Below, piece by piece: positions 11,625-53,126 of a DNA stretch of 53,645 bases (position 1 is its first letter; the number at the start of each line of letters is the position of its first letter). Position numbers and translations under genes: made by a program. The stretch lies in the IMG/VR virus record IMGVR_UViG_3300030419_006157, positions 1 to 53,645 of that record; one strand, given 5' to 3'. Below the pieces are notes generated by a model. That model was not told the DNA's origin and made no database searches. It saw nothing but the letters and a program-made list of their open reading frames with translations. Origin of the DNA: a virus. Its lineage: Duplodnaviria > Caudoviricetes.

Positions 11625-17976
<6,352 letters not shown>

Positions 17977-32168: not shown

Positions 32169-33258
32169 TCAATACCTCATCTTCAGTCAAGCCCATTATC
32201 CTAGCTTTTATTTCGTCCATACTAGCAAGTTTTTTTGTTTCTTCCTTAAGGGATTCTTTTCTCAGATCTGCCAATTTTATCATTTTTTCTCTATTCTCTT
32301 CGTCTTTCCACATCTGAACCAAGTTTAGAATGCTGGCATTTTCTTGAATCTGTTTGCTCAGGCGGTCACTTCTTTTTACTTTTAGGTCGTTTAAGAGTTT
32401 TTGCTGTCTGGTAACGCATTGATTGTATTCTGTTCTGGCCGTATTATTAGCTTCAATCAAGGTCATAGGTATTCTATTGCCCTGTTCGACTTCTTGATCG
32501 ATTTGCATCTGGATCATTTGAATCGTTTCTTGAATACTTGAAGAAATAATTATTTCAGTGCATAAAACGATATATTGATCTACTTCTTCTTGGGTCAAAT
32601 CAGATTTATCGTTGGTATAACGAACGAAGCTAGACTCGAATAACTCCCTATCTGTTTCTGCCTGATAGGTGTTAATCTGGTGGTTAAACCTATAAGTATT
32701 CATATACCCAATTAAGGAAGATAGCTCCTTTTTTTGGGACGGCTTTAATTTATCTTTGTCTATTTTTTCGGCTACATACTTATTAACTTTAAAGATCGCA
32801 GATAATATAGTTTTCGGGGGTTTATAATGACCAGTTGCAACATCCTCATGCTCTGGCTGTGCGTAAACCAATTGCGGGTCTAAAGTTTTTATTTCTTCTA
32901 GAACTGTCCTAGCCTCTTGACTTAGCGCTGTTAGCTTATCGTTATTATATAAAGCTCTCGTTATTTCTAACGGCTTCATGGTAAGGACGTTATTTTGTAT
33001 GAATTCTTTTTGCTGGTCAGTTAGAGTTTTTGTCCCTTTAGCTTTATACTCGTGAGCGCCACGCGCCTTAAGCGATTTAGAGGCCAAAAACGCTTTTACA
33101 GCCTTTCCTTCCTTGCTCCTGCCGTCTGCACTCTCTATACTAGGAAAAGCCTCTCTAACAAGCTCTAGGAGCGAAGGAGGGTCTTCCTCTCGACTATTCC
33201 AAAGCTCAATCACTCTGGCTTGTTGATCTTCTGTTAGCTCTAATGGTTTCGCGCTCAT
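32161..33258 (-). CDS. Hypothetical helical protein (candidate small terminase)
   Basis: 365 aa, coiled-coil C-terminus, two genes upstream of terL. Confidence 0.5.
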   Translation of the reverse strand: MSAKPLELTEDQQARVIELWNSREEDPPSLLELVREAFPSIESADGRSKEGKAVKAFLASKSLKARGAHEYKAKGTKTLTDQQKEFIQNNVLTMKPLEITRALYNNDKLTALSQEARTVLEEIKTLDPQLVYAQPEHEDVATGHYKPPKTILSAIFKVNKYVAEKIDKDKLKPSQKKELSSLIGYMNTYRFNHQINTYQAETDRELFESSFVRYTNDKSDLTQEEVDQYIVLCTEIIISSSIQETIQMIQMQIDQEVEQGNRIPMTLIEANNTARTEYNQCVTRQQKLLNDLKVKRSDRLSKQIQENASILNLVQMWKDEENREKMIKLADLRKESLKEETKKLASMDEIKARIMGLTEDEVLNG

Positions 33259-33959
33259 TATAGATCTATCTCTCCATTATATAAGATTTTTTTGACTTTT
33301 TCTAATATGGTTTTCTTGATGTTCTTTAACTGTTTGTATCCCGGCGCTCTATTTTTCTCCGCGCTCTTATATCCCATTAGTTTTGAAGCTTCTTCTTCTG
33401 ATTTAAACTGTATATATAAAAGGTTGTAAAGTTTCCACTCTATGGGCTTCAGTACTTCTTTCATTTTGTCATGCAGTTGTTTTGACTTAACGTCAAAATT
33501 CATAGTCTCCATAGACATTTGAAATACTTCCTGCTTATGGTTTTCTAAAGATACTGGAAGTTTTGTATCATGGGCTCTTTTTTTTGTTTTTTCCCAGTTA
33601 GCATATAAAGGACATTCGTTACATTGCTTTCCGTATATGGAGCACATGTCAACTCCCTCGGCGGCATCGCACTTTAAACAAGGACGACTAAAACTTCCGT
33701 AGTTGTTCCTTATAAGGTTTTTTATTTGATTTGATATTATCCTATTGAGCCAAGGAGCTAATGGCTTCGCTGGGTCGTACAGATGCCATTTTTTGTATAT
33801 ATGAATCCTTAAAATTTGAGAGACGTCATCGAAATCCATCCAAGACAAAATACTCAAATTCCATTTTCCCCGTCTCTTGAGAATTTCAGTATCTATCTTA
33901 TCAATAACATCTTCAAATTTTGGACTTATTTTTTTACTAGGTTTCTTTTTTCGAGGCAC
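33258..33959 (-). CDS. Phage sigma70-family sigma factor with Cys-rich insert
   Basis: DFDDVSQ..IHIYKKWHLYDP...WLNRIISNQIKNLIR (region 2); CLKC..C..C..C insert; region-4-like C-terminus. Confidence 0.8.
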   Translation of the reverse strand: MPRKKKPSKKISPKFEDVIDKIDTEILKRRGKWNLSILSWMDFDDVSQILRIHIYKKWHLYDPAKPLAPWLNRIISNQIKNLIRNNYGSFSRPCLKCDAAEGVDMCSIYGKQCNECPLYANWEKTKKRAHDTKLPVSLENHKQEVFQMSMETMNFDVKSKQLHDKMKEVLKPIEWKLYNLLYIQFKSEEEASKLMGYKSAEKNRAPGYKQLKNIKKTILEKVKKILYNGEIDL

Positions 33960-38688: not shown

Positions 38689-38737
38689 TTTATCCTTTAC
38701 ACTTATTTTGTTTTCATCTAATTTTCTGGGGTTTTTA

Positions 38738-39604
38738 ATGAAAATCGCACTCGTAGCATCCGAAGGTAACAAAACTGCGAAATGGTCTACCCCCATAGGT
38801 CTATCGAAGGCCTTTTCTAAAAAAGGGCATGATGTTGATAATTATTACTTAAACGCAAAACAATGTGATTTCTCTAAAATAGAAGAAAATTCAGATGGGT
38901 ATGATTTAATCTTTTTCTGTTGGTGCGGTCCATCTCCATCATTTGACGAAAATTTAAAAAAATTAAAATCTAAAACCGAAACCCCCGTATACCTAGAGCT
39001 TGGAGATGAACCTCAAACCTATACCCACAACCAGCAAAGAATAAATCATGTTGATGCATTCTTCACACCGGACCTGAGATGCCACATGCATTATCGCGGG
39101 AGAAATCTCCCATCGCATTGGATGACTCATTGGTGTGATGATGAAATTTTTTATAAAACAAACACTGAAAGAGAAAATATCTGCGTAACGACCTGCATAG
39201 GCGAAAGGCCTTTACTTCACATGTTTTCCAGATCTTATGGAGGTAAATTCATAAATAAGAAAGTAAGTGATTATGAGAATACTGAGTTTTATAACTCTGG
39301 CACAATTACTTACCAATTTGCTAGATTTGATGAAATAACCAGAAGGATATTTGAAGCAGGGGGTTGTGGTAATGCAATAATTACAAATAGAATATCCCCT
39401 GATACTGGAATATATGATCTTTTTAAGGAAGATGAAGATATATGCTACTTCTCCAATGAAGGAGAAGCTATTGAAAAAATGAGAAAACTGTATAATGATG
39501 ACGATTACAGAAATCACCTAGCAAATAACATCTATAAAAAAATAAAAGAAAAACATTTGGTCGGTAATCGTATAGATCAGATACTAGAAGTTCTCGAAGG
39601 ATGA
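38738..39604 (+). CDS. Glycosyltransferase (CgeB / Glyco_trans_1_2-like, GT-B)
   Basis: Start MKIALV; RRIFEAGGCG, DLF..DEDI..F, H....R. Confidence 0.8.
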   Translation: MKIALVASEGNKTAKWSTPIGLSKAFSKKGHDVDNYYLNAKQCDFSKIEENSDGYDLIFFCWCGPSPSFDENLKKLKSKTETPVYLELGDEPQTYTHNQQRINHVDAFFTPDLRCHMHYRGRNLPSHWMTHWCDDEIFYKTNTERENICVTTCIGERPLLHMFSRSYGGKFINKKVSDYENTEFYNSGTITYQFARFDEITRRIFEAGGCGNAIITNRISPDTGIYDLFKEDEDICYFSNEGEAIEKMRKLYNDDDYRNHLANNIYKKIKEKHLVGNRIDQILEVLEG

Positions 39605-40602
39605 AGATAATTCTAACAGGTGCAGCAGGGCTACTAGGTTGCCATCTTACAAGACATCTACTCAAAAAAGGGCATACTGTAATAGGTATAGATAATCTCT
39701 CTGGTGGATATAAAGATTTCTTGCCAGAAGATGAGAAGTTTCACTTTTTCAAATACGACTTGGGGGCAAATACTGATTCTCGCGAATTAATAAATAGCAC
39801 TTTTGATCAGTTCAAACCAGAAGTGGTGTACCACTTAGCCGCTTACGCAGCAGAAGGGCTATCCCCATTCATTAGAAACTACAATTATGTCAATAATGTC
39901 TTATCTTCTGTTAATTTAATAAATGCATGTGTTGAGTATGAATGTAAATTGATTTTTACATCCTCTATGGCTGTCTACGGGCAACAGAAGCCGCCTTTTA
40001 GAGAAGATATGAGGCCAAACCCTATAGACCCCTATGGGATTGCTAAATACGCCGTAGAAATGGATCTAGAGCAAGCACACAGGCAATTTGAGTTGCAATA
40101 TAATATAGTAAGACCTCATAACGTGTTAGGTACTTATCAAAATATCTGGGATAGGTACAGAAACGTAATAGGGATCTTTATTAGAAGGGCGTTAAACAAC
40201 GAGCCATTGAGAATTTACGGCGACGGAGAGCAAACTCGCGCATTTTCTGATATTTCTTATTATATGGAGCCATTTGAAAAGCTCATGGAGAATCATAACG
40301 GTGAAACCTTCAACATCGGGGCGGATAAATATTGGTCTATTAATGAAGTTGCACTACTTGTGCAAAAAATAGCATCAAAACACAACTATAATGTCCAAAT
40401 AGAGCACGTAGAGCCAAGACACGAGGCAAAACATGCTTATTGTGATCACTCCAAGGCTAAAGAGCTTTTAGAATTCAAAGATGAAACAAACTTAAATGTA
40501 TTAATTGAAGAAATGTTCAATTGGGCTATGGCTCAACCAAATAGAGAAGTAAAAGATCTTAAATATGAATTAACAAAAAATATATACTCCTATTGGAAAT
40601 GA
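39601..40602 (+). CDS. NAD-dependent nucleotide-sugar epimerase/dehydratase
   Basis: TGAAGLLG, SSMAVYG, YGIAK (YxxxK), GDGEQTRAF. Confidence 0.93.
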   Translation: MKIILTGAAGLLGCHLTRHLLKKGHTVIGIDNLSGGYKDFLPEDEKFHFFKYDLGANTDSRELINSTFDQFKPEVVYHLAAYAAEGLSPFIRNYNYVNNVLSSVNLINACVEYECKLIFTSSMAVYGQQKPPFREDMRPNPIDPYGIAKYAVEMDLEQAHRQFELQYNIVRPHNVLGTYQNIWDRYRNVIGIFIRRALNNEPLRIYGDGEQTRAFSDISYYMEPFEKLMENHNGETFNIGADKYWSINEVALLVQKIASKHNYNVQIEHVEPRHEAKHAYCDHSKAKELLEFKDETNLNVLIEEMFNWAMAQPNREVKDLKYELTKNIYSYWK

Positions 40603-41315
40603 AAAATGCAGTAATATTGCCAACTTATAATCGCCCCGAATCTCTCAAAAGATTCTGTGATAGCTTTAATAGTACCTCTAAACACTCTCAACTGTTTGTT
40701 GTATTAGATAAAGTTGATCCCAAGTTTGATGAATGTGTTAATATATGCACCGAAAACCAAGTAGTGACATTCGTCACGCCTTTCAGGCAAAGGTTATCAA
40801 GTAAAATTAATTTTGGGTGGATGAATAGCCTGAATTATATGACCTATGCTTACTATAATAATCCCGAAAAGACAGCTACCCACTTTTCTTTTTATGGAGA
40901 CGATGTAGTATTTAATACAGAAGATTGGGATTTGAAGCTTATGGAAGCCTGTAACGGAAATCCCTTCCATATTGTCTACCCGAATGACGGCCAAAGACTA
41001 GATCTTCCGAATCATTGGACTATAACTAGCAAAATTGCTGCTGCAACAGGCTTTTTATCCCTTCCATGCCTCGATCATATGTATGTTGACATGTTTTGGC
41101 TTGAAGTGGGCAATCAATTAGGGGTAATTCGTAGGGCAGACGAGGTAAAAACAACTCATTTGCACCCAGCCTATGATCCCAACGTGGAAAAAGACGAAAA
41201 TTACAACTCATCACAAGAATTATACAAATCAGATGAGTATATGTTTAACGCATTTAAGGGTACTGGCAAAATGCAAATGCTAATCGATAAGCTAAAACCA
41301 ATATTAAAAGAATAA
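40599..41315 (+). CDS. GT2-like glycosyltransferase
   Basis: ILPTYNRP, GDD, HMYVD, HLHP. Confidence 0.75.
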   Translation: MKNAVILPTYNRPESLKRFCDSFNSTSKHSQLFVVLDKVDPKFDECVNICTENQVVTFVTPFRQRLSSKINFGWMNSLNYMTYAYYNNPEKTATHFSFYGDDVVFNTEDWDLKLMEACNGNPFHIVYPNDGQRLDLPNHWTITSKIAAATGFLSLPCLDHMYVDMFWLEVGNQLGVIRRADEVKTTHLHPAYDPNVEKDENYNSSQELYKSDEYMFNAFKGTGKMQMLIDKLKPILKE

Positions 41316-42061
41316 TGCCGCCTTTAACCGTACTAATTCCCACTCATGCTCTGAAAAGAGAGGTCATTGGACCTTTCAAGGACATGAATCAGCAAAATGC
41401 TTCGGCTCCCTCTACTAAATTAATAGAGCTAGTAGTAAAAAACGTTGAGGATCACATTACCGACATCCCTTTGGAGTTTGTTATTGGCCTAGATCATAAA
41501 CCAGATCTTGCCTTGTCTATAGATTACCTTGAAAATCTAGAGAATTACGCAAAAAGTACCAAAAACGTTAAAATTACTCATGTAGATTTCAAATACTGCG
41601 ATAGAGTAATGACAACGAAGACGGCTACAGAGAATTTTTACAACTTAATAGAGACATGTGAGACCGATTACTTCATGATGTGGGAGCATGATTGGGTTTT
41701 CATAGATAAAGTTGACCAAGAGCAGTTAAAAATATGGAATCGTGATATCGATATGCTCCGTTTTAACCAACATCCCAATGAACCCCGAAAAGAAGACGAG
41801 TTGATGTGGCATGATGAGAGGGGTTTAAGGACATCTCTATATAGCAATAACCCTTTTGTGACATCAAAAGCACATTGGATATTAAAATATATACATCATG
41901 GCTATGAAATACCCGATTGGTGGGGTGAATATGGAGCTTTTATAGAAGGCCCAATTAATAGATTAATAAAAGAAGAGAAAATTAAGCCCAGAATTCATCT
42001 ATACGGGGATAGATCTGATCTTCCAGTGATAAAACATCTTAACGGCCAAGTCTGGCAGTAA
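41315..42061 (+). CDS. Putative glycosyltransferase
   Basis: TVLIPTH, DYFMMWEHDW, YSNNP, HLNG. Confidence 0.65.
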   Translation: MPPLTVLIPTHALKREVIGPFKDMNQQNASAPSTKLIELVVKNVEDHITDIPLEFVIGLDHKPDLALSIDYLENLENYAKSTKNVKITHVDFKYCDRVMTTKTATENFYNLIETCETDYFMMWEHDWVFIDKVDQEQLKIWNRDIDMLRFNQHPNEPRKEDELMWHDERGLRTSLYSNNPFVTSKAHWILKYIHHGYEIPDWWGEYGAFIEGPINRLIKEEKIKPRIHLYGDRSDLPVIKHLNGQVWQ

Positions 42062-43303: not shown

Positions 43304-43318
43304 TGTGGTGTTGCGAGA

Positions 43319-43346
43319 CGGGAGGGCGAAAGCCCTCTCGTTTTTT
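43319..43346 (+). terminator. Rho-independent terminator
   Basis: cgggagggc-gaaa-gccctctcg-tttttt. Confidence 0.9.
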
Positions 43347-43463
43347 GAATTTTCGACCCTGAAAGAAAGTACGTGTACGTATAATACGTATGCGTACTAA
43401 ATTTTCGACCCTGAATAGTCGCTTCGCGAATATTCGACCCTAATTGACCCTGATTAGACTACC

Positions 43464-43533
43464 TTATTTGGCCTTCGACCCTAAAAGAGGCGTTTTATTT
43501 GGCGTTCGACCCTAAAAGTGGCGTTTTATTTGG
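43464..43533 (+). repeat. 31-bp tandem direct repeat
   Basis: ttatttggc(c/g)ttcgaccctaaaag(a/t)ggcgtt twice, plus a partial third copy. Confidence 0.9.
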
Positions 43534-43613
43534 GTTGTTCACAAAAAGCCGGTGAAATTGTTAATAACTTCTTGATTTTGTGGATAACTTTTTAAATTGT
43601 GAATAACTTTTTC

Positions 43614-43641
43614 TTGTAATTAAAAAAAATTTTGCTATAAT
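43614..43641 (+). promoter_or_regulatory. Sigma70-type early promoter
   Basis: TTGTAA-16-TATAAT with extended TG. Confidence 0.8.
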
Positions 43642-43649
43642 CAACGGAA

Positions 43650-43718
43650 ATGTTAGAAATACTAGTAATTGCGGCATTTATCATGGTTATTGACAGGTTG
43701 TCAAAAGGCGGTGAATAA
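43650..43718 (+). CDS. 22-aa hydrophobic micropeptide (not in ORF track)
   Basis: MLEILVIAAFIMVIDRLSKGGE, directly after the promoter; two paralogues nearby. Confidence 0.65.
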   Translation: MLEILVIAAFIMVIDRLSKGGE

Positions 43719-44015
43719 GTGCGGGATTACCTGTGAATAACTCTGTGAATAACTTGTGAATAACTCTGAAGCATATAGTACGTATGCGTACTATACGTGT
43801 GCGTATGAAATGATACGTGTGCGTATGATTATGGTAACAACATGGTACGTATACGTATGATTGTTGTTAGCCGTTGTTACCTGTTTTTTTCGACCCTGTA
43901 CGTACACGTACTAAATGTGAATAACTTTTTTAAAAAGTTGTGTCATAAAGCTTGACTTTTTTTCGTAATGTGGTATTATGTATTGTCGCGCATGGTGTGC
44001 GACACCATACAAAAA

Positions 44016-44288
44016 ATGAGTAATACAAAAAACAAAGTGTCCGAAACTACCGTTCGCAACCTGCTCGCCGGAGCAAATGACGCAAGAGAGTTAAACACTC
44101 AAATGGCCGAAATGCAAAACGGATTGATCCTCACCGATCAGGATGTTGCAAATCTGGAAAGCACGGTTCAACTGCTACAGCAGCAGCAGGAGCGACTCAA
44201 TCAGGCATATGAAATCCTGAATAAGTTGCCAAGCGGGATAAAAGCAGTCTATCACAAGACTGATCCTAACGGCAGATACCGGAGCTAG
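44016..44288 (+). CDS. Small coiled-coil early protein
   Basis: Start MSNTK after TTGACT..TATTAT promoter and a leader hairpin; terminator at 44302-44336. Confidence 0.7.
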   Translation: MSNTKNKVSETTVRNLLAGANDARELNTQMAEMQNGLILTDQDVANLESTVQLLQQQQERLNQAYEILNKLPSGIKAVYHKTDPNGRYRS

Positions 44289-44562
44289 TCAGAGTATCTC
44301 AGCCCCTCACCGGAAACGGTGGGGGGTCTTTTTTTGCTCTCCAAATGATATAGTACGTACACGTACTATACGTATGCGTACTATACGTACACGTACTATG
44401 CGTACACGTACTGTACGTATGCGTATCAAATTTCGACCCTAATTGACCCTAAAAAAGTATATTATTTGGCTACTTATATACAAAACGGGCCTCTACGTTA
44501 TTTGACTTATTTGATAGGAAACGGGCCTGTGAATAACTCGATTATTTTTTTTCGTTATTCTG

Positions 44563-44591
44563 TTGACATACGAAACAAATTACTGTAGGTT
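44563..44591 (+). promoter_or_regulatory. Sigma70-type early promoter, near-leaderless
   Basis: TTGACA-17-TAGGTT; ATG 9 nt after the -10 hexamer. Confidence 0.75.
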
Positions 44592-44600
44592 TATATCGTT

Positions 44601-44873
44601 ATGAGCAACTTGAAACTACATCACAACCGAAACGCCAAACTCGCCGCCGCAGTAACCAACCACATCAAAATGCGGAAGCGGCAGGGCGCAGATCACACGG
44701 TAGCCAAAACAGAGGCCTACCTTTTGTATGGTATCAAAAACCAAAACAGCCCAGACGTTAATTACGCTTGGTTGAATCATGCGCGGGAATACTTCGCGCC
44801 AGAAAACGTCCAAGAGCAATATTACTCATTCTTGGAAAAGTATCACGGCAAAGACTTGGTTCCCTCTGCCTAA
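44601..44873 (+). CDS. Hypothetical early protein
   Basis: 90 aa between promoter and CUUCGG hairpin. Confidence 0.75.
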   Translation: MSNLKLHHNRNAKLAAAVTNHIKMRKRQGADHTVAKTEAYLLYGIKNQNSPDVNYAWLNHAREYFAPENVQEQYYSFLEKYHGKDLVPSA

Positions 44874-44908
44874 TGAAACGGGGAGGCCTTCGGGCCTCCC
44901 CTTCCCTG

Positions 44909-44983
44909 ATGCAAGAAATAATAATATTCGCCATCGCTTTTTTAATACTAGAAAAAATATTCTCTGATGAAATTACTCACTAA
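44909..44983 (+). CDS. 24-aa hydrophobic micropeptide
   Basis: MQEIIIFAIAFLILEKIFSDEITH; same register as 43650 and 47597 peptides. Confidence 0.6.
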   Translation: MQEIIIFAIAFLILEKIFSDEITH

Positions 44984-45239
44984 AGAAATCAAGAAGCAAC
45001 TCCCCGCATTATATACAAATGAAAACAACCCCAACCCCAAGGCAATTGTCAAGTTCTTCACTCCGTTTGCGAATTGGACATGGTACGCGACAGAGTTTGA
45101 CGGTGAGGACACCTTTTTCGGATTGGTGGAAGGACACGACAAAGAGCTTGGCTACTTCAGCCTTGCCGAGTTGGAGAGCATGGGTCACAAAATTGAAAGG
45201 GATCTCTACTTTAAGCCAACGCCATTAAACGATTTGTAA
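44967..45239 (+). CDS. DUF2958-family protein
   Basis: VKFFTP...TWYATE.D..D.FFGLV.G...ELGYFSL.EL...IERDLYF. Confidence 0.85.
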   Translation: MKLLTKEIKKQLPALYTNENNPNPKAIVKFFTPFANWTWYATEFDGEDTFFGLVEGHDKELGYFSLAELESMGHKIERDLYFKPTPLNDL

Positions 45240-45253
45240 AGTGTGTTGCTCAT

Positions 45254-45279
45254 GGGCGGCCTTCGGGCCGCCTTTTTTT
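45254..45279 (+). terminator. Rho-independent terminator (UUCG loop)
   Basis: ggcggcc-ttcg-ggccgcc-ttttttt. Confidence 0.9.
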
Positions 45280-45500
45280 GACCCTGAATATAGTACGTAT
45301 ACGTACATTTTTTCGACCCTGAATAGTTGCTCCGCAAATTGACCCTAATTGACCCTGAAAATTAATATTATTTGGCCATATTTAAATAAAACGGGCAAGT
45401 AGTCAAGCAAAAGTTATTAACACTTATTTGGATCAATGTGAATAACCCGCGAAAAAATATCTCGACATTCAAAAGGCTTTATGACTATAATGCCCCCGTT

Positions 45501-46130
45501 ATGCAACAGTACACATTCACCATCGAACGCGAGCAAAGCGATTTTGCCTCGCAAATTGAAACACTCGCCACCATCGGAACCCGTGCAATTTCCGTTACCC
45601 TACAGCGTGAAATGCACGTTGGCAAAACGCCTTGGGGAACCAAAGGTGATTTTAAGCTGAACACGCCAAGCGAATTTTTTGGCATGGTTAAGACTTGGAA
45701 AATGACCGGATTGGTTAACGTGGATTACACCGCCGCCGTCAATCGCCACCTTTCAAAGATTGGCCACTCGGATGCGGGAACGTGGGAAGGCAGCGGATCG
45801 TGGGGAACCCGCCAAGGCGGAACCCGCGCCAACATTGGCCACAAGCTCCAAAGCTACTTGCAACTTTTCCGCTGGTATGGTGAGCGCAACCTTTTTACGC
45901 GCTACAGCGTGGACAACGTGCAAATCGACCCTGAAAGCTTTTCAGAGCATCTGTACGCCAAGGGATCAAGCTCCCCAAGCATCCGAACAAGCGACGGCGA
46001 GCGCGTCCCCGTTCCGTTTTACGTTTCGCGAGTGAAGTTTGAAGATATTCTGGAATTGGAAGGACTGCCAAAAATCCAAAGCGAACCACGCGAGCGGATG
46101 CTTGCCGAATATAGGCTTTCAGATTTATAG
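45501..46130 (+). CDS. Conserved phage early protein (paralogue of 42418..43026)
   Basis: Start MQQYTF after TCGACA..TATAAT; DY...VNR.L...G....WG.R.....HK...YL. Confidence 0.75.
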   Translation: MQQYTFTIEREQSDFASQIETLATIGTRAISVTLQREMHVGKTPWGTKGDFKLNTPSEFFGMVKTWKMTGLVNVDYTAAVNRHLSKIGHSDAGTWEGSGSWGTRQGGTRANIGHKLQSYLQLFRWYGERNLFTRYSVDNVQIDPESFSEHLYAKGSSSPSIRTSDGERVPVPFYVSRVKFEDILELEGLPKIQSEPRERMLAEYRLSDL

Positions 46131-46154
46131 ATTCAAATTCCCAAGGAGGAAACC

Positions 46155-46187
46155 AATCTGCCCGATCCCCACGGGCAGATTTTTTTT
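46155..46187 (+). terminator. Rho-independent terminator
   Basis: aatctgcccg...cgggcagatt followed by a T-run. Confidence 0.85.
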
Positions 46188-46333
46188 GACCCTAAATCGA
46201 CCCTGAAAAATCCACTACGTGGATTTTGACCCTAAAGGATCTGGTTATTTGATAGATTGTGAATAAGCTGGCGTTCATTGTGAATAACTTTTTCTTGGCA
46301 TGAAAACGATTTTAGACTAGTCTTGGCGGCGTT

Positions 46334-46579
46334 ATGAGTAACACTGACATTCAACTGCACAAGGCCACCGCCGAGCAGATTAATCAGATCGAGGATCTGG
46401 TCAATTCTGGATCGGGGCAAGGCTTCAGGGATCTGCTCGCGTGGATCTACAAGGCGCAGATCCGCCAAGCGGATACTGCGGAGATCGCCAACATGATCGC
46501 CCACGATCTGCCAATGCTCGTGGGGGATCGTGACGGCCTCCCCCGATCCGCAGGGGCCGAGGATCTGTATTCCCTTTGA
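46334..46579 (+). CDS. Hypothetical early protein (GATC-rich gene)
   Basis: TTGGCA-17-TAGTCT promoter, near-leaderless ATG, terminator at 46598-46626. Confidence 0.75.
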   Translation: MSNTDIQLHKATAEQINQIEDLVNSGSGQGFRDLLAWIYKAQIRQADTAEIANMIAHDLPMLVGDRDGLPRSAGAEDLYSL

Positions 46580-46768
46580 GGATCCTCAGAATCACCAACG
46601 TCGCCTTCGGGCGGCGTCTTTTTTTTGACCCTAATTGACCCTAAAGGGTTAAGTTATTTGACCCTGAAATATTTCAGTATTTGACTTATTAACAATCGGG
46701 TGGGGAATTGTGAATAACTTTCTTATTTTTTTCTTGTAGTAAAATCAATTTTAGTGTTTAATCTAACC

Positions 46769-47092
46769 ATGCAAACGAACTACGTAATCCAAATTCAAGA
46801 CATCGAAAATTACGGCCTCCACAGTGACGAGCCTTCCCATTATTGGAAATTCAAAGGCGGGGATCTGCTGGTGGTGGAGAATGCCCCTACCCGTGCCGCT
46901 ACCGTAATCGCGGTGGTCAATCTTCTCAAGTGTCAAGGCGGCATGGCCTTCCAATCCATTATTCGCGGATGGGATCAACATAGCGAAATTCCCGCCGAGA
47001 TCCGCAATGACGAGTGGGCTACTTTCATCGATTGGGCCGACCTAGAGGCAGACGCCAACGAAAAATTCGACCCTGAAAAGGTGGAGGTGTGA
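46769..47092 (+). CDS. Conserved phage hypothetical protein
   Basis: Leaderless ATG 46769; Q..ENYG.H....YWKFKGG motif. Confidence 0.75.
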   Translation: MQTNYVIQIQDIENYGLHSDEPSHYWKFKGGDLLVVENAPTRAATVIAVVNLLKCQGGMAFQSIIRGWDQHSEIPAEIRNDEWATFIDWADLEADANEKFDPEKVEV

Positions 47093-47141
47093 ATAACTTT
47101 TTCTTGCAATAAAAATAATTTTATGATTTAATAAGCGCGTT

Positions 47142-47342
47142 ATGAGATTCACATTTAAAAACTTCATGAGTGATGTTGACACCCACGTTCAAATCCGTTG
47201 TGGTTTAGGCATCGATGACTTGCCCGACGTTAACTTTCACGATTTTTGGTGGAAGGGAATTGACGAGGCAGATTGGCAACATATGGTTGAGGCAGCAGCA
47301 GACGAGGCCTTGAATAGTGCAGGATTTGAAGGAGTGATTTGA
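47142..47342 (+). CDS. Small acidic early protein
   Basis: TTGCAA-17-TTTAAT promoter; GLGIDDLPD.NF.D.W motif. Confidence 0.75.
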   Translation: MRFTFKNFMSDVDTHVQIRCGLGIDDLPDVNFHDFWWKGIDEADWQHMVEAAADEALNSAGFEGVI

Positions 47343-47414
47343 AAATTCGACCCTGAATAACTTACAAAAATAATCCTTGCATTACGAAAAAAATTAGTAT
47401 ATGGTTATATCGTT

Positions 47415-47600
47415 ATGAGCGAACAATATAAAACTAGAGCAGAGCGCGAACTCGTTTCGTGGAAACTATGGGCCGTCAATATGGGAATGTTGCGCGAGAT
47501 ACACAAGGAGATCGAAGAAAAAAATTCGACCCTGAAAGAAGATCCCGTAGTGTATACGGCAAATTCAAAATATCAAAATGAGTATTCGATCATTGTATGA
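47415..47600 (+). CDS. Small hypothetical early protein
   Basis: TTGCAT-17-TATGGT promoter, near-leaderless. Confidence 0.7.
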   Translation: MSEQYKTRAERELVSWKLWAVNMGMLREIHKEIEEKNSTLKEDPVVYTANSKYQNEYSIIV

Positions 47601-47665
47601 TGGAGGTTTTTGTGATCGCCCTAGTCATCTATATAGTGGACAGATATTCGACCCTGAATGAGTAA
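47597..47665 (+). CDS. 22-aa hydrophobic micropeptide (not in ORF track)
   Basis: MMEVFVIALVIYIVDRYSTLNE; ATGA overlap with upstream gene; terminator at 47701-47726. Confidence 0.65.
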   Translation: MMEVFVIALVIYIVDRYSTLNE

Positions 47666-47909
47666 ATGATTTTTGGTTAGGGTTGTTTGTTGCGTAATAA
47701 AGGGAGGCCTTCGGGCCTCTCTTTTTCGCGTCATTTTTTGACCCTAAAAGCTACGCTTTTGACCCTGAATGAGTGTTTATTTGAATAATATACCATAAAA
47801 TGGGCATTCTGTCAATGTTTTTTTATTACCAAAATAAATTTGATTGTGAATAACAATAACGAAAAAAAAGCTTGCATAAATTTTTATATCTGTTATTCTC
47901 TTTTCTGTT

Positions 47910-48614
47910 ATGGGAAACGCAAAACTAAAATTCGGAAAGCCAAATTCAAAGCTTAAAAAACTACAGGCAAAACGCGGTGTGAAATTGATCACCTTTACCT
48001 TGCCAAGCGGCCACACTTGCCCCGGTGCAAAGGATTGCCTTGCAAAGGCGGACAAGGTCACCGGAAAAGTTAAAGACGGAAAGCAAACAGAATTTCGCTG
48101 TTTTATGGCTTCACTTGAAGCGGTTTTTCCGTCACTGCGTGAATCCGTTTGGCACAATTTGACCCTGATTAAAAACGCGCTCAAAAATAGCGTTGAAGCT
48201 TGCGCGGATCTCATTTGCGAAAGCTTGCCGAAAAAGTTTGATATCGTGCGCGTCCACGTTGGCGGCGATTACTTTTCCCGCAACTATTTTTTGGCGTGGT
48301 GTGAAGTTGCCAAGCGCAACCCTGAAAAGATTTTTTACTCTTACACTAAAAGCTTAAAAATTATTTCTGGAATTGATAAACCTAAAAATCTAGTATTGAC
48401 TGCGTCCCGTGGTGGCAAGTTTGACGATATGATCAAAAAGCTTTCACTTAAAGAAGCAAAGGTTGTCTTCAGTAAAGAAGAGGCGCAATTGCAAAAGCTT
48501 GAAATTGACACCGACGACGAAAAGGCCGCATACGGCAAGAAAGACTTTGCCCTTTTAATTCACGGTGTGCAGCCAGCAGGAAGCAAAGCGGCGGCGGCAG
48601 TGAATGCATTATAA
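47910..48614 (+). CDS. GP88-like (radical-SAM-related) phage protein
   Basis: FTLPSGHTCPGAKDC...CFMA, VRVHVGGDYF, FYSYTKS. Confidence 0.75.
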   Translation: MGNAKLKFGKPNSKLKKLQAKRGVKLITFTLPSGHTCPGAKDCLAKADKVTGKVKDGKQTEFRCFMASLEAVFPSLRESVWHNLTLIKNALKNSVEACADLICESLPKKFDIVRVHVGGDYFSRNYFLAWCEVAKRNPEKIFYSYTKSLKIISGIDKPKNLVLTASRGGKFDDMIKKLSLKEAKVVFSKEEAQLQKLEIDTDDEKAAYGKKDFALLIHGVQPAGSKAAAAVNAL

Positions 48615-48636
48615 TAGTGCGCCCATAACATAACAA

Positions 48637-48678
48637 GGGCGGTGCAGGATCCACTCGTGACCTGTGCCGCCCATTTTT
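48637..48678 (+). terminator. Rho-independent terminator
   Basis: gggcggtgcagg...cctgtgccgccc-attttt. Confidence 0.75.
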
Positions 48679-48866
48679 CGACCCTGAATAGGTCTTCGAC
48701 CCTAGATAGATTTGACCCTGAAAGAGTGTTTATTTGTCTAGTAGTGAATAAGCTGGCGGTTTTTTGACCCTGAAAGGACTCCTTATTTGTTTGGTTGTGA
48801 ATAAGCTGGCAATAAATAACGAAAAAAAAGCTTGTAATCAAATCGTTTTTACTGTTTAATAAAACC

Positions 48867-49100
48867 ATGCAAACGCAAGAGTGGACAATCATCGGACGCA
48901 CATACAAATTTGGTCATCTCAACTACGAGGTTGGATGCGGTGGAACGGAAACCCCCTATTGCTGGAATGGCAAGTATTACCTCATGGTCTGGAACAAGGC
49001 CGAAAAAAAGCATGAGCATTATTGTTTCGAGGATGATCTCTTTTATCAGTCAGTTGGTTATAGCGATGATGATTGGCAAGGGTGCAGTCACTTCGATTGA
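48867..49100 (+). CDS. Hypothetical early protein
   Basis: TTGTAA-17-TTTAAT, ATG 6 nt later; GGTE.P...NG..YL..W motif. Confidence 0.75.
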   Translation: MQTQEWTIIGRTYKFGHLNYEVGCGGTETPYCWNGKYYLMVWNKAEKKHEHYCFEDDLFYQSVGYSDDDWQGCSHFD

Positions 49101-49183
49101 ATTCGACCCTGAAAGAAAGCTTTGTGAATAACTCTCTGAAGTTTTTTCTTGTAATGAAAACGAATCTATGATTTAATAAAAAC

Positions 49184-49372
49184 ATGATGAGCAACACGAA
49201 TACAAACAATCCCGAAAATAACCCTAACAGTCACAACGACCCACAGAGTGAACTGCGCGACCTAATCCAAGTCCAACCAGAGGAAGCGTGGGAACTCTGG
49301 GGAACCAATTCTTCCGGTGTCGAAGAATGGGATGCCCAAGTTTGGCAAGACATTAACTTCATGGGAGAATAA
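49184..49372 (+). CDS. Small acidic hypothetical protein
   Basis: TTGTAA..TTTAAT promoter, leaderless. Confidence 0.7.
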   Translation: MMSNTNTNNPENNPNSHNDPQSELRDLIQVQPEEAWELWGTNSSGVEEWDAQVWQDINFMGE

Positions 49373-49545
49373 TGAAAAACAACTTTTTCTATACTAAAAA
49401 AGGGGCGAATCTCTGGGCCAAATCACAAAGGCTAAAGGGAGCAAAGGCAAAAGTAATCAAATTGTCCGAGCCGAGTTATGTCGGTGGCTTCAATTACGAG
49501 GTGCAAGTAACTGGAGAGCCGTCTATATTCGACCCTGAAAAATAA
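49372..49545 (+). CDS. Small basic hypothetical protein (57 aa, not in ORF track)
   Basis: MKNNFFYTKKG...SIFDPEK; TAATG coupling. Confidence 0.6.
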   Translation: MKNNFFYTKKGANLWAKSQRLKGAKAKVIKLSEPSYVGGFNYEVQVTGEPSIFDPEK

Positions 49546-49592
49546 TAAAGTTTTTTCTTGTAATAAAAATAAAATCCTGTACTATAAGAACC

Positions 49593-49961
49593 ATGAGCTA
49601 CGAATACGAACTTGAATACCTCTTTGAGGAAGTTGAAAAGAATGGCAAACTGTATAGCGTTGAAGCCACCATCGGGTATGACGCCGAAATGGTTGACAAC
49701 GGAATCGGCCCCTATGAGTTTTGGGGTGCGCGGGGAACCGATGTTCTGATGGAGGTCGAAATTGGCAACAGCGGCATCATCAGCATCGACAAAATCGAAG
49801 ATGAGGACTGCAATGAAATTGACCCTGAAACCATCTCAATCTCAGACATTGAGGATTGGTTGAAGCCCTTTTACCAGAAGGGATACCGCGACAGGTGGAA
49901 CCCTGCGCGGTGGTACGATGAGGCCATTGAGAATGATGCTCAGAAAAATTTTGAAGAGTAG
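49593..49961 (+). CDS. Highly acidic early protein (possible DNA mimic)
   Basis: TTGTAA..TACTAT promoter; very high D/E content; GIGPYEFWGARG motif. Confidence 0.75.
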   Translation: MSYEYELEYLFEEVEKNGKLYSVEATIGYDAEMVDNGIGPYEFWGARGTDVLMEVEIGNSGIISIDKIEDEDCNEIDPETISISDIEDWLKPFYQKGYRDRWNPARWYDEAIENDAQKNFEE

Positions 49962-49984
49962 GCTGCTCTCATAACAACTAAAGG

Positions 49985-50011
49985 CGGAAAGGGAAACCTT
50001 TCCGTTTTTTT
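49985..50011 (+). terminator. Terminator ending the + strand early array
   Basis: cggaaagg-gaaa-cctttccg-ttttttt. Confidence 0.9.
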
Positions 50012-50220
50012 ATTGTTAAAATTTGACCCTGAATTTCTTAAAATCAGCGAATTTCTCATCGGAGAAAACACCCCTTTTCACGAAATTTTTTCGACCCTAA
50101 ATTGACCCTAGATAGTTATTGACCCTGAAAAATAACACTTATTTGTTTAGCCCTGAAAAAGCCGACCGATTTATTTGACCCTAATTAAATCAGTTTATTT
50201 GAGCTAATTGACCCTAAAAT

Positions 50221-50262
50221 AAAACCCCCGCTCCGAGGAGGTATAGAAAGGAGCGAGGGTTT
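50221..50262 (-). terminator. Probable terminator for the converging - strand genes
   Basis: aaacccccgctcc...ggagcgagggttt. Confidence 0.6.
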
Positions 50263-50286: not shown

Positions 50287-50796
50287 CTACCTCAAATTAT
50301 AAAACACATGATTGCCGATAACCTTTGTGGGCTTAACAGGGATCTTATTTCCTTTCTTATCTTTTAAAAACTTCCCTGTGCGTTTGTCTATTTTGTACGC
50401 CCAAGAGGGAGGACTCTTCATCATTTTTTTACTGTAATAATGATCGGCGTTGCCAGTGAACTTTTGCACAAGGTCGAATCCGCTATCGATTGCTAAAGCA
50501 AGCGACTTGGCATAAGGGGCAGATTTGGATTCCCACAAGTGACTCAACTCTTTCTCTGTCTTGATCTTCCCGTTACCAGCATTCCAAACGCTGAACTGCC
50601 AAGGCTGGTGACACACCTGTGCGGGAGTGATCTTCTTTTCCTTTGCGCGTTCTTGAATGACACATCCCACGGCGTACATCCCACTCGCTCCTTCGCCACG
50701 GGCTTCTCCAAGAATCGTAAGTGCGATTATCCGTTGCTCTTTTTCACCACCAAAAACACTGGCGGCTAATGCAATTAGTATAGCGATGTTCTTCAT
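50287..50796 (-). CDS. SleB-like cell wall hydrolase (Hydrolase_2) with signal peptide
   Basis: ALTILGEARGE, AVGCVI, QPWQFSVWN, ADHYY, IGNHVFY. Confidence 0.88.
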   Translation of the reverse strand: MKNIAILIALAASVFGGEKEQRIIALTILGEARGEGASGMYAVGCVIQERAKEKKITPAQVCHQPWQFSVWNAGNGKIKTEKELSHLWESKSAPYAKSLALAIDSGFDLVQKFTGNADHYYSKKMMKSPPSWAYKIDKRTGKFLKDKKGNKIPVKPTKVIGNHVFYNLR

Positions 50797-50808
50797 ATTG
50801 CGTATATC

Positions 50809-51015
50809 CTACCAAAGCTCATCTTCATTGTCAACGTTTTTTTTATTATCAAAAACCTTTTCGTCATCTAGGAAACCCTCGGTGGATAGGTATTTGAAAA
50901 TAGCCATTTGTCTTTCTTTGGTCATGCCCCCTTCGGAGCTAATTGAAATATTCTTGTTGGTTTTATCTAGTAGAACTTCTACTCCGTTTATCAATAAACA
51001 ATTTAAGGTACTCAT
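50809..51015 (-). CDS. Small hypothetical protein
   Basis: MSTLNC... after TTGACT..TACGAT promoter; KYL..EGFL. Confidence 0.65.
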   Translation of the reverse strand: MSTLNCLLINGVEVLLDKTNKNISISSEGGMTKERQMAIFKYLSTEGFLDDEKVFDNKKNVDNEDELW

Positions 51016-51067
51016 AAGATGCCCCAACCGTGAGGCTGGGGTAATCGTAACCTTACTCTAGGTAAAG

Positions 51068-51247
51068 TCAAGATTCAATTGGATCGCGTTTAACGATCTC
51101 GATTTGTGGGTCGTATCCATCATGATTGATAAGCATACTCCGAACATCTTCTAGTTCGCATGATGGTAGATAGAAAACCGTATCGATTTTCTCTTTATTG
51201 AGATAGACATCCCAACTCGTCATTACTTGGCTAACGTGTCTTAACAT
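51068..51247 (-). CDS. Small conserved phage protein (59 aa, not in ORF track)
   Basis: W.VYL....IDTVFY......V...LI.HDGY.P.I; leaderless after TTGACT..TACAAT. Confidence 0.7.
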   Translation of the reverse strand: MLRHVSQVMTSWDVYLNKEKIDTVFYLPSCELEDVRSMLINHDGYDPQIEIVKRDPIES

Positions 51248-51282
51248 GGCTCTATTGTATCAAGGTTATTTTTATAGTCAAC

Positions 51283-51832
51283 AAAAAAAACAGTCTGCTC
51301 GTGCTTACTCGCCCCTAACAGGTCGCGTGTCCTGTTCGCTGCGTTAGTCCTGCCAAGGCTGTGTTTCGCCTCCGAGCAAACCTAGAGAGACACCATCGGC
51401 GGTTTCCCGTTTCCCCACCTTTCGGCTCCACTTTCTTCGTATAGTGGCATTTAAGGCTGCGCCTTTATTACAACGAGTATGTTTCTCTCCTGTTCCCTTT
51501 CGGGAAATTGCTGTCGGTGTGAGGGGCTCGAACCCTCCCCCGTCCCTATCGTGTCACCGTCTAGCTTCAATGCATCTCCACTAGGGGCTTTCAGCCACGG
51601 GCGGTATTGCGGTACTTAACGAAATTCGTCAGAGGTTATAACCGTAATACTTCCAGTCTCACCAACATAAATTGATTCCCACGGTTTTGTATGATGTAGT
51701 CTCCCTAGGGCTACGACGACTACAACCCGCGCCTGTATTAGCGCATCTTTGTCGTGGGCGTTGCAAGATCTGGGCATCTAGTGACGGAGGGCGTTAGTAC
51801 CGAACCGTTTAGGGCATCATCCCCTGCAACTG
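51283..51832 (-). ncRNA. Putative multi-domain structured ncRNA transcript (~540 nt)
   Basis: No credible ORF; GC-rich; TTGACT-17-TAAGTT promoter at ~51838-51866; five successive closed stems; ends in stem plus U8. Confidence 0.65.
51512..51667 (-). ncRNA. tRNA-like element with enlarged interior
   Basis: Acceptor-like stem TGTTGGTG/CACCGACA, T-arm GAGGG-TTCGAGC-CCCTC, D-loop-like AGACTGGAA; no canonical anticodon arm and no encoded CCA. Confidence 0.7.
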
Positions 51833-51883
51833 ATATTAACTTACTACAATTAGTTTCGTAAGTCAACACTTTTTTTAAATTAA

Positions 51884-52076
51884 TGAGAGAGAGGATTTCT
51901 TGTTTGCCTCCAACGTTTTCGGGGTCACAGCCAAGATAGTTCAAGTCTGTCCCTACTTCGAGCCAACCTTACAGACCCCCAAGAGATTGGTGATCTCCTA
52001 GTCCGTAACATTGCACCTTAGCTGCTATGACAACAGCTTATTCGGTCACTCTCTTAGGGTCTCCGTCGAGTCCCTA
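51884..52076 (-). ncRNA. Putative structured RNA
   Basis: Non-coding; GAGAG/CTCTC closing stem with internal AGCTG/CAGCT, GAGAT/ATCTC and TCTGT/ACAGA helices. Confidence 0.5.
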
Positions 52077-52091
52077 AATTATTTAAAAGAA

Positions 52092-52496
52092 CTACTTATC
52101 TTCTTTTACGATGTACACCTTCTGTCCATCGATAAAGACATCCCTTGCATAATGCACGGGCTCCTTTGTTTTAACGTCTACAAAGGATTCATACTTATAA
52201 GGATTATAAGTCACCTGCCTAAGCGTCTTAGGCTTCCTAGCTTTACGCTCCTCTAAAGATTTAACCTTACCTAGATCGTGAACATAACCGCGCACGGTTG
52301 CGTGGACGTTCTTCCGTCTGGTTTCTAAAACTCTCTGCCTTCCCGCTTCGCTAACATTAAAGTCTATGCGCCCATAATGACCCTTCTTACCAACTATCCT
52401 TATAGCGTGGGTATGCTTTACAACAAGGCCCGTTTTGCGATCTTTCACGCTCAAGCACTTCTTATGTAAGTTGTAATATACTTCTACTGCCCTCAT
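52092..52496 (-). CDS. Conserved phage hypothetical protein
   Basis: VYYNLHKKCLSV...VSEAGRQRVL...KNVHA.VRG...YNPYKY motif; own TTGACA promoter. Confidence 0.8.
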   Translation of the reverse strand: MRAVEVYYNLHKKCLSVKDRKTGLVVKHTHAIRIVGKKGHYGRIDFNVSEAGRQRVLETRRKNVHATVRGYVHDLGKVKSLEERKARKPKTLRQVTYNPYKYESFVDVKTKEPVHYARDVFIDGQKVYIVKEDK

Positions 52497-52523
52497 TGTC
52501 TTTATAGACTATCAAAAAGATAT

Positions 52524-52811
52524 TTAAGTGTCAATACTTTTTTTTCCTAATTCGATTATTAAATTAAGCTCTCTTTCAACACATTCTTCATCTAGATATC
52601 CTTTGACTGTATCACCCCAACCTAATGGATCGCACATCATTCCTTGGTGGCGAAATACACCCATCTCATACAAGCCCTTTTCGCTGCCATATGAATGCTT
52701 ATGTTTCACCACGGAAACGTCATAGCCATTTGGCAATTCCACGTATGCCTGAATCGCACCCTCTCCGTGCGTCTTGGATATATCATCAAACTTTAGTTGA
52801 GCAAATTCCAT
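52524..52811 (-). CDS. Conserved phage hypothetical protein
   Basis: NGYDVSVV.H..SYG...GLYE...V.GYL motif. Confidence 0.8.
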   Translation of the reverse strand: MEFAQLKFDDISKTHGEGAIQAYVELPNGYDVSVVKHKHSYGSEKGLYEMGVFRHQGMMCDPLGWGDTVKGYLDEECVERELNLIIELGKKSIDT

Positions 52812-52931
52812 TTTATTTACTGTAAAAAAGATCCCGCTTTTATGTGGTTACGGAATAGGCGTTTATGATAACCAGTGACAAAACATAGTACAAAAAGCAC
52901 CGCCACATTGCCTTCCCTTTTCAGGGTCAAA

Positions 52932-53126
52932 TTAACATCTATCAGGTAACATCCAATCCTCTCGGATGCGTTTGGTGCGAGCCACTGATTCCTCAATGAG
53001 TCGATGAACATCTTCGACCATCTCACTACCCATTGTGACTTCCCCATGAGTAGTTAACCAATCCTCAAGGTCATCCTTGATTCGGTTAATCATTATTCTG
53101 TCGTGTTGGTCTTGTTTGTCATCCAT
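52932..53126 (-). CDS. Small hypothetical protein
   Basis: 64 aa; leaderless after TTGACA..TTTAAT. Confidence 0.7.
   Translation of the reverse strand: MDDKQDQHDRIMINRIKDDLEDWLTTHGEVTMGSEMVEDVHRLIEESVARTKRIREDWMLPDRC

Follow-up and report, generated by a model that had tools for sequence, protein, structure and literature searches.

Co-oriented copies of a 14-bp word in the early-gene cassettes of an uncultured phage: candidate sites of a transcription regulator

What keeps a short, asymmetric DNA word pointing one way, in about forty copies, through a 6.9-kb block of small phage genes? The question is raised by IMG/VR record IMGVR_UViG_3300030419_006157, a 53,645-bp fragment from an uncultured virus of the Caudoviricetes (the whole stretch is called the window below), in which the word TYGACCCTRA crowds into the early region. 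The completeness of the fragment is estimated at 34%; about two-thirds of the genome lies outside it, and any genome-wide count given here covers this fragment only. We suggest, tentatively and on the basis of sequence comparisons, that the copies are oriented binding sites for a candidate transcription regulator, set within repeated early-gene cassettes.

Exact matches to TYGACCCTRA number 39 in the window, 38 on the + strand and one on the - strand, compared with a mean of 0.33 (sd 0.68, maximum 4) in 100 dinucleotide-preserving shuffles. Of these matches, 37 fall within 43353-50217, every one of them on the + strand, and the only two elsewhere are at 14819 (+) and 52921 (-). When near-variants are included by searching for YGACCCTR, the same region holds 40 copies on the + strand and none on the - strand, and in the remainder of the window the motif is at chance level on both strands. 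An earlier note on this DNA had described about 40 co-oriented copies between 43352 and 50219, confined to the early region, with one reversed copy near 52920 among genes of the - strand; the strand-resolved map bears out each of these statements for this fragment, down to the coordinates of the GACCCT core. The 40 copies form about 18 clusters across the 6.9 kb, and the widest gap between neighbouring copies is 835 bp.

Alignment of the 40 copies defines a constrained unit of about 14 nt, WWWTYGACCCTRAAW, which has neither dyad nor other internal symmetry, and the information profile drops to about 0 bits in the flanks. One-mismatch copies in the array region amount to three on the + strand and none on the - strand, and degenerate copies are almost absent. 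The uninformative flanks and the scarcity of one-mismatch copies indicate that the word itself is maintained, and not the surrounding sequence through duplication. Nineteen of the 40 copies begin with TCGAC. Tandem copies occur 10 bp apart in four pairs and 11 bp apart in two, and the further short spacings are 16, 17, 18, 21, 23, 26, 29, 29, 31, 31, 33 and 35 bp. The idea that tandem copies follow the helical turn therefore holds for six pairs and not for the array as a whole: phase coherence at 10.5-11 bp is 0.38, and the phasing is only partial because many short spacings (16-18, 23, 26, 29 and 35 bp) are off phase.

The placement of the copies follows transcription units. In the array region about 14 small + strand genes stand one after another, and 34 of the 40 copies are non-coding, though non-coding DNA makes up 41% of the region. 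A terminator scan returned 27 terminator-like sites against 9.4 +/- 3.1 in shuffled sequence, and the T-tails of strong + strand terminators extend into motif copies. Seven of the eight + strand intrinsic terminators (Table 1) are followed by a copy 5-16 nt past the stem, and the eighth by one at 106 nt. A second word, TATTTG, occurs 17 times on the + strand of the array and never on the - strand; 13 of the 17 sit 19-21 nt, start to start, past a motif copy. The copy paired in this way is always the gene-nearest one and nearly always has the TTGAC form, and the resulting bipartite unit is confined to intergenic DNA; the other 27 copies have no TATTTG partner.

Between the motif clusters and the -35 elements of the early promoters lie most of a third set of words, matches to TTWTNCACA, the DnaA-box consensus given in section 3.3 of bioRxiv 10.1101/866236. 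There are 17 such matches in the window, against 5.1 +/- 2.2 expected, and those of the array share one orientation (Table 1). The sigma-70-like promoters that follow end 6-10 nt ahead of the ATG (spacing read from the sequence), with no Shine-Dalgarno sequence, and the mRNAs would thus be leaderless or nearly so. Three of the DnaA-box words stand in tandem at 43732-43763, and forward variant boxes, TTGTTCACA and TTATTAACA, lie 14-15 nt ahead of some of them. The same 6-10 nt layout from -10 element to start, again without a Shine-Dalgarno sequence, is seen in the right-arm genes at 50796-52500 (-).

Is this arrangement particular to one genome? A search for the tandem form of the motif found one IMG/VR contig (G001) and 83 metagenome stretches, six of which are true relatives, with a GC content of 0.43-0.46 and both the motif and DnaA-box words. 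These fall into three lineages: the window with L015 (99.8% identical); a second lineage of G001, L058, L040 and L020 (99-100% alike) together with L094, which is 96% identical to that group and about 81% identical to the window; and L055, at about 77% to the window. The array is accordingly present in two further lineages at 77-83% identity to the window. Copies on the + and - strands number 30 and 5 in L058, 33 and 4 in L094, and 23 and 0 in L055. Among the five - strand copies of L058, three make a perfect inverted pair with a forward copy just past terminators, and two lie in the oppositely transcribed right arm. The coupling to TATTTG recurs as well: 10 of 13 such words are paired with a motif copy in L058, 11 of 14 in L094 and 7 of 7 in L055.

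In keeping with selection on the DNA, the bases of the word have changed less than their neighbours. Within non-coding DNA, identity over the motif is 87-89%, compared with 77-78% over the remaining bases (p 0.001-0.004 across three pairwise comparisons, of which those with L058 and L094, themselves 96% alike, are not independent). Copies inside genes agree at 59 of 60, 50 of 50 and 40 of 40 bases, where coding DNA is 80-83% identical; of their wobble positions, 17 of 18 and 12 of 12 are unchanged, compared with 71% and 65% elsewhere. The encoded residues do differ in homologues: the GP88 homologue of a motif-less relative has FDAI where the window reads LTLI, and a 58%-identical homologue of the protein P0003 has IALE where the window reads IDPE. 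That copies sit inside reading frames, and that selection acts on the DNA as a polar cis-signal, had been proposed before; both points are upheld, with the correction that the in-gene copies are six (45926, 47068, 47527, 48160, 49530 and 49820), not five, the one at 49530 having been missed, and that they use two frames and not three. Two of the six are in the last 8 codons of their genes.

The cassettes themselves are shuffled between lineages. Between window positions 44556-48869 and the corresponding DNA of L058 and G001, two neighbouring cassettes are swapped and several genes have been gained or lost. Those shuffle junctions that can be placed fall at TGAATAAC, a repeated word upstream of promoters, and not at the motif. 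Some lineage-2 cassettes lack a homologue in the window, and these too carry the word where genes end, with a DnaA-box word and a -35 element following it. The modules are clearly paralogous, and near-identical stretches surround some copies.

A more distant relative, G002, was reached via a right-arm protein. It is a complete genome of 158,301 bp, with an end overlap of 24 bp only, structural genes at about 68% nucleotide identity, and a share in a promiscuous patch, 611 bp long in this case. G002 has seven scattered motif copies and no array, so that the array is specific to certain lineages and sits in a region of small genes that varies. The one word that clusters on a single strand of G002 was considered as an analogue of the array and dropped, as it is a CRISPR-like repeat: at 120200-120760 (in L181) some eight or nine direct repeats of about 36 nt recur with a period of 65-67 nt around unique spacers of about 30 nt, and degenerate units continue to 124.7 kb. 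Beyond these genomes the trail is short. No close cultured relative was found, blastn giving a match of 57 bp only; the terminase is 21-24% identical to Bacillus-type phage terminases; searches of IMG/VR with the 230-aa open reading frame (ORF) at 45438-46130, which contains P0003, and with the GP88-family protein led to G001 only; and among the IMG/VR matches listed for the bipartite pattern, every row except G001 holds a single, chance-like match.

How, then, might the word be used? Its layout ties it to transcription units, which argues for the site of a transcription regulator and not for a signal at a DNA end; a protein-binding site was among the options raised originally, and this one survives. 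What the sequence shows is the sites themselves, which are polar, conserved and fixed in their place within the module; from this we infer a sequence-specific DNA-binding protein, probably a monomer or one that forms head-to-tail oligomers, which would recognise the asymmetric stretch of about 14 bp. The module runs from an intrinsic terminator through one to four words to TATTTG, which lies 19-21 nt past the last of them, and on through DnaA-box-like words of one orientation and a sigma-70-like promoter to an almost leaderless start; it is repeated ahead of nearly all small early genes. As the site is asymmetric and part of a directional module, all copies point along transcription. Two modes of action may be envisaged. 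Bipartite copies, consisting of the box, a gap of 9-11 nt and TATTTG, could act as regulator-dependent start sites or as operator pairs upstream of genes, and stand-alone copies, which occur within genes, at gene ends and between convergent terminators, could act as extra operators or polar roadblocks. One factor could in this way turn all 7 kb of genes on or off together at a given point of the infection.

Several observations weigh against this proposal. Six copies lie between convergent terminators, where there is nothing obvious to regulate: downstream of that cluster (50023-50217) there is neither a + strand gene nor a sigma-70-like promoter. The distance from the last copy to the -35 element, as read from the sequence, varies (29, 30, 37 and 46 nt in compact junctions), so that there is no fixed activator geometry with the sigma-70-like promoters, and the off-phase spacings noted above count on the same side, as do the three inverted copies inside the lineage-2 array. 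Since paralogous modules shuffle between lineages, the 40 copies are not 40 independent events. Lastly, no candidate binder came to light. No helix-turn-helix or repressor family was found in the array genes or in either arm (Pfam, PHROGs), and two mid-sized proteins of unassigned function, P0001 and P0003, gave no lead from solved structures or from Atlas look-alikes; P0003 has only two homologues in a large protein set, and its cluster is also present on a contig of 75,544 bp.

The closest rival, which we consider possible but unlikely, takes the word as a promoter element for a phage sigma factor, with TTGACCC as a -35-like and TATTTG as a -10-like element 13-15 nt apart. Early genes would thereby gain a second, phage-controlled promoter of the middle class upstream of the host-type one. 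The family does encode sigma-70-type factors: the window has one in which only region 2 was detected, a possible reader of phage-specific promoters that is present in G001 as well, and three are found in G002, among them a primary-like factor (regions 1.2 to 4) and an extracytoplasmic-function-like one (regions 2 and 4). The bipartite unit, with its fixed spacing, its co-orientation with the genes, its restriction to intergenic DNA and its constant use of the gene-nearest copy, speaks for such a promoter, as does the resemblance of the TTGAC form in nearly all paired copies to a -35 hexamer. The 27 copies that lack TATTTG do not fit it, nor do the roughly half of all copies that begin with TCGAC, and tandem copies 10-11 bp apart are not a usual promoter layout. 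The usual -10 hexamer ends in T, which TATTTG does not, and a spacer of 13-15 nt is on the short side for primary-type sigma factors. Moreover, G002 shares the sigma factor of the window yet lacks the array, despite its three sigmas, so that the one sigma shared with the window cannot explain a lineage-specific word; the other two sigma genes of the window lineage would lie beyond the fragment.

The word as a plain sigma-70 promoter was dropped on reading the sequence, the spacer being too short, and a Bacteroidetes-type promoter and a minus-strand promoter were dropped in the same way. A search for the MotA-type MotCF domain (PF09158) gave no match in G000, G001 or G002 and one for a T7-type RNA polymerase gave none either; the control searches were equally silent, which leaves the MotCF result uninformative.

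Could the copies instead be iterons of a replication origin, or of a plasmid-like control or partition locus, acting with host DnaA? Direct repeats with some spacings of 10-11, 21 and 31 bp and the 15 interleaved, co-oriented DnaA-box consensus words would suit such a locus, above all at 43.35-43.93 kb, where seven copies, six consensus DnaA-box words with variants, several palindromes and AT-rich tracts come together. The other 33 copies are distributed across a further 6 kb, with one cluster to each cassette, and not within a few hundred bp beside an initiator gene as at an origin. Lineage 2 keeps the array but has nothing that corresponds to the DnaA-box-rich stretch at 43.3-44.5 kb, and neither an initiator of replication nor a partition gene was found in the array region. 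We regard an origin as quite improbable.

Hardly better placed, and in our judgement very improbable, is a polar signal for a DNA-tracking machine, either a Chi-like site for a nuclease of the RecBCD or AddAB type or a guide resembling the FtsK-orienting polar sequences (KOPS), on end-proximal or first-entering DNA. The strict 40:0 polarity, the high density and the absence of any gap above 835 bp are what recommend it. Copies in the longest genes are held invariant, as if coverage mattered, and the lineage-dependent cassette order is compatible with frequent recombination. Tracking would require none of the features that set this array apart, namely 34 of 40 copies in non-coding DNA, fixed spots in transcription units and coupling to a second word; Chi and KOPS sites work through their position relative to a DNA end or replichore, and here placement follows terminators, promoters and TATTTG. 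Copies in the oppositely transcribed arm are flipped (one in the window, two in L058), three inverted copies are kept inside the lineage-2 array, and the placeable recombination junctions lie at the DnaA-box-like word. Chi sites are over-represented in the host chromosome and skewed with the direction of replication; five proxy genomes, taken from among the nearest cellular relatives of the epimerase encoded in the window, showed neither enrichment nor strand excess of the motif, with counts equal to those of the reversed-word control, a weak test since these genomes only stand in for the host. As for first-entering DNA, nothing indicates it: the contig does not stop at physical ends, and for this lineage neither a terminal repeat nor a genome end close to the array is known.

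The copies might also have no function of their own and be remnants of duplicated, recombining regulatory cassettes, as the paralogy of the modules, the near-identical stretches at some copies and the shuffling of cassettes could suggest; flanks of about 0 bits around a nearly invariant 14-mer, motif bases that outlast the neighbouring non-coding bases, in-gene wobble positions that are held and the near absence of decayed copies make this highly improbable. Programmed single-strand nick sites of the T5 kind, for which the use of one strand and a defined asymmetric word could be cited, are scarcely credible, given the placement by transcription unit and the fact that forty nicks in 7 kb, some of them 10 bp apart, would break one strand into pieces. 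Each of the Chi, KOPS, nick-site and origin readings is thus disfavoured by the placement data, and of the mechanisms listed in the earlier note the first three also fit poorly with the flipped right-arm copies and the inverted copies of one lineage. An RNA-level signal, a three-frame stop signal and an uptake sequence were dropped on reading the sequence.

No tyrosine or serine recombinase (integrase or resolvase) was found in the window, in G001 or in the complete G002, with control genomes positive; as G002 lacks both, the family looks virulent, and a role of the array in lysogeny is unlikely. An attempt to infer the host from the nucleotide-sugar epimerase encoded in the window failed: its sequence is 56-62% identical to genes of Patescibacteria, Alphaproteobacteria and Melainabacteria, the nearest cellular relatives being scattered over several phyla.

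Table 1. Motif copies, associated words, terminators, promoters and sigma factor genes, with positions in the window unless a contig is named.
Feature	Position	Strand	Remarks
Whole array	43353..50217	+	40 YGACCCTR, 37 exact TYGACCCTRA
First cluster, 6 copies	43353..43515	+	Last three are 31-bp tandem units (motif, 10-11 nt gap, TATTTG)
Lone variant TCGACCCTGT	43890..43899	+	Adjoins ACGT palindrome and DnaA-box word
Tandem pair, 10 bp	44433..44452	+	Second copy has TATTTG at +20
4-copy cluster	45278..45358	+	Begins 5 nt past terminator stem 45254-45273; last copy with TATTTG
In-gene copy in P0003 (209 aa)	45925..45934	+	Reads IDPE; kept in all three lineages
3-copy cluster around small palindrome TCCACTACGTGGA	46186..46235	+	Begins 5 nt past terminator 46155-46181; last copy with TATTTG
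3-copy cluster, two overlapping bipartite units	46625..46667	+	Begins 8 nt past terminator 46598-46617
Single copy in last 8 codons of 107-aa gene	47067..47076	+	DnaA-box word 21 nt on, next -35 element 37 nt on
Single copy directly past stop codon, fused to DnaA-box-like CCTGAATAAC	47347..47356	+	Cassette junction
Two single copies	47526..47657	+	47526 within 61-aa ORF; 47648 right behind that ORF
Pair, 21 bp	47738..47768	+	Begins 16 nt past terminator 47703-47722; second copy with TATTTG
In-gene copy in GP88-family gene	48159..48168	+	Reads LTLI; kept across lineages
4-copy cluster, two bipartite units 52 bp apart	48678..48773	+	Begins 6 nt past a terminator
Three single copies	49103..49828	+	49103 past stop codon; 49529 in last codons of 57-aa gene; 49819 within 122-aa gene
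Last cluster, 6 copies and 3 TATTTG	50023..50217	+	Between convergent terminators 49980-50009 (+) and 50224-50242 (-)
Sole reversed copy	52921..52930	-	Within - strand ORF 52817-53047, thus co-oriented with local transcription
Near-variant copies	43890; 48696; 50102	+	TCGACCCTGT, TCGACCCTAG and TTGACCCTAG, respectively
Eight intrinsic terminators	43315..50009	+	Stem ends 43344, 44327, 45273, 46181, 46617, 47722, 48672, 50009; six from scan, 47703-47722 and 48637-48672 read from sequence
DnaA-box consensus TTWTNCACA, 15 matches	43579..49131	-	One orientation (TGTGAATAA or TGTGGATAA on +)
Sigma-70-like early promoters	43614..49592	+	TTGTAA, TTGCAA or TTGACA; 16-18 nt; TAnnnT-type hexamer
Sigma-70-family factor	33258..33959	-	Only region 2 detected; also in G001
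Further sigma-70-family genes	L180:17040-17993; L179:14123-14743		

Arrays of ACGT-rich palindromes of the GTACGTATACGTAC type adjoin motif copies at 43365-43400, 43775-43860, 43900-43915, 44350-44425 and 45290-45306; they are specific to the lineage of the window, and lineage 2 has a different small palindrome, CCCACGTAGTGGG, at the matching place. Among the genes of the array are a DUF2958 gene (44967-45239) and the GP88-family gene (47910-48614), in the company of unmatched small, mostly acidic proteins, and together they resemble host-takeover or anti-defence genes. A block of sugar-modifying genes, made up of two glycosyltransferase-like ones and the nucleotide-sugar epimerase gene, occupies 38582-42061 (+), between the late genes and the array. 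Many structural genes in the late block (1-38416, - strand) have TGTAAT or TGTAAA 12-25 nt ahead of the ATG and no Shine-Dalgarno sequence; these words possibly mark a class of late promoters read by a phage sigma factor.

Near the right end, a patch of 611-675 bp (51877-52551) carrying a gene of the L5 gp82 family (PF25735) recurs at 94-98% identity in phage contigs that are otherwise unrelated or distant, G002 among them. For the protein, 133 viral relatives were found, and its gene appears to be a promiscuous mobile one. The motif search also returned contigs of high GC content (0.5-0.65) with 10-bp arrays, which were set aside as unrelated. Six of them (L062, L014, L019, L031, L076 and L073) carry tight tandem arrays of the core word (YGACCCTA...) at 10-11 bp, often as two arrays 1.1-1.3 kb apart, which in L062 and L031 flank an ORF of about 255 aa; its product may resemble four-helix-bundle proteins of the 23S rRNA intervening-sequence type.

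If the copies are indeed oriented sites of a transcription regulator, they would represent a second, independent phage use of dozens of oriented asymmetric sites to control a gene block, and a case outside the mycobacteriophages, in a large and apparently virulent marine phage with its own sigma factors. The 14-bp word, its partner word and the DnaA boxes would form a compact, testable system for joint early-gene switching and cassette shuffling. Co-oriented DnaA-box words before nearly every early promoter hint that the phage reads host DnaA, which has so far only been proposed for T5. Taken further, and here we are doubtful ourselves, the array could belong to a phage control code not described before, in which some 14 autonomous early cassettes are wired to three inputs, the oriented 14-bp word with its reading factor, the partner word at its fixed distance and the host DnaA boxes, such that one phage or host signal, possibly the replication state of the host, would gate the host-takeover block, with the repeated words doubling as joints for cassette exchange. 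A bolder version still would make the word a polar signal for a DNA-tracking enzyme at work on this block. Should the word instead turn out to guide a tracking enzyme or a nuclease, it would establish a signal of this kind for the marine host.

Among described systems, several offer partial parallels. In T4-type hyperplastic regions, mobile cassettes of a promoter and a stem-loop flank small early genes, and their order is shuffled among close relatives. The likeness lies in repeated promoter and terminator units around small early genes whose order is shuffled; T4-type cassettes are not known to carry either a separate multi-copy, oriented 14-bp word or DnaA-box words. Activator boxes that replace the -35 element, such as the MotA boxes of T4 middle promoters and the direct repeats of PhoB/OmpR-type regulators, are oriented, about 10 bp long and at a fixed short distance upstream of the -10 element; tandem boxes at about one helical turn are possible, and in T4 they precede early genes that also have host-type promoters. 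The bipartite copies described here may be likened to these, with an oriented box 9-11 nt ahead of a -10-like word, but TATTTG is not a canonical -10 element, and 13 of 40 copies are paired and 27 are not.

In T5-like phages, which are large and virulent, the first-step-transfer DNA is an early region that, like this one, is dense in direct repeats, palindromes and DnaA-box words (bioRxiv 10.1101/866236). There the repeats occupy untranslated blocks within the terminal repeat and the DnaA boxes are paired in inverted repeats, whereas here the words come as one set per gene cassette, all co-oriented, and neither a terminal repeat nor a genome end is known. The T5 DnaA-box model is itself a proposal in that preprint.

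By analogy, the closest described system is the stoperator and operator set of the Cluster A mycobacteriophages, which the array resembles. In the passages cited (PMC9283540; PMC6550527), the L5-type repressor binds more than 20 asymmetric 13-mers located in promoters and short intergenic spaces; stoperators of Cluster A phages (L5, Bxb1, TipsytheTRex) lie occasionally within genes, the repressor is monomeric, site orientation tracks transcription, and reversing a site abolishes its function. Certain differences are plain. The stoperators are single sites distributed genome-wide, and here 37 of 39 exact copies are packed into 6.9 kb of 53.6 kb, with six pairs at 10-11 bp. L5-type phages are temperate, and their sites serve prophage silencing and immunity; in this family no recombinase was found, with the full-genome evidence coming from the relative G002. 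A third of the copies pair with a second word, the array word is unrelated to the published stoperator consensus, and no cognate repressor, which in the L5-type system is a monomer with a helix-turn-helix and a stoperator domain, was found in the array or the arms, within a window that covers about 34% of the genome. Two genes of the window do fall within Pfam families that take their names from proteins of mycobacteriophages, GP88 and L5 gp82. As to the sites themselves, the word, with about 14 constrained positions, matches the asymmetric L5-type site of about 13 bp without dyad symmetry, and its copies follow transcription in well over 20 instances (40 of 40 on the + strand with the one right-arm copy on the - strand, and in L058 30 on the + strand with two right-arm copies on the - strand), the three inverted lineage-2 copies being the exception. 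Dozens of asymmetric sites, a polarity that follows transcription and a bias towards intergenic DNA are thus common to this array and, as far as those accounts go, to the Cluster A stoperators.

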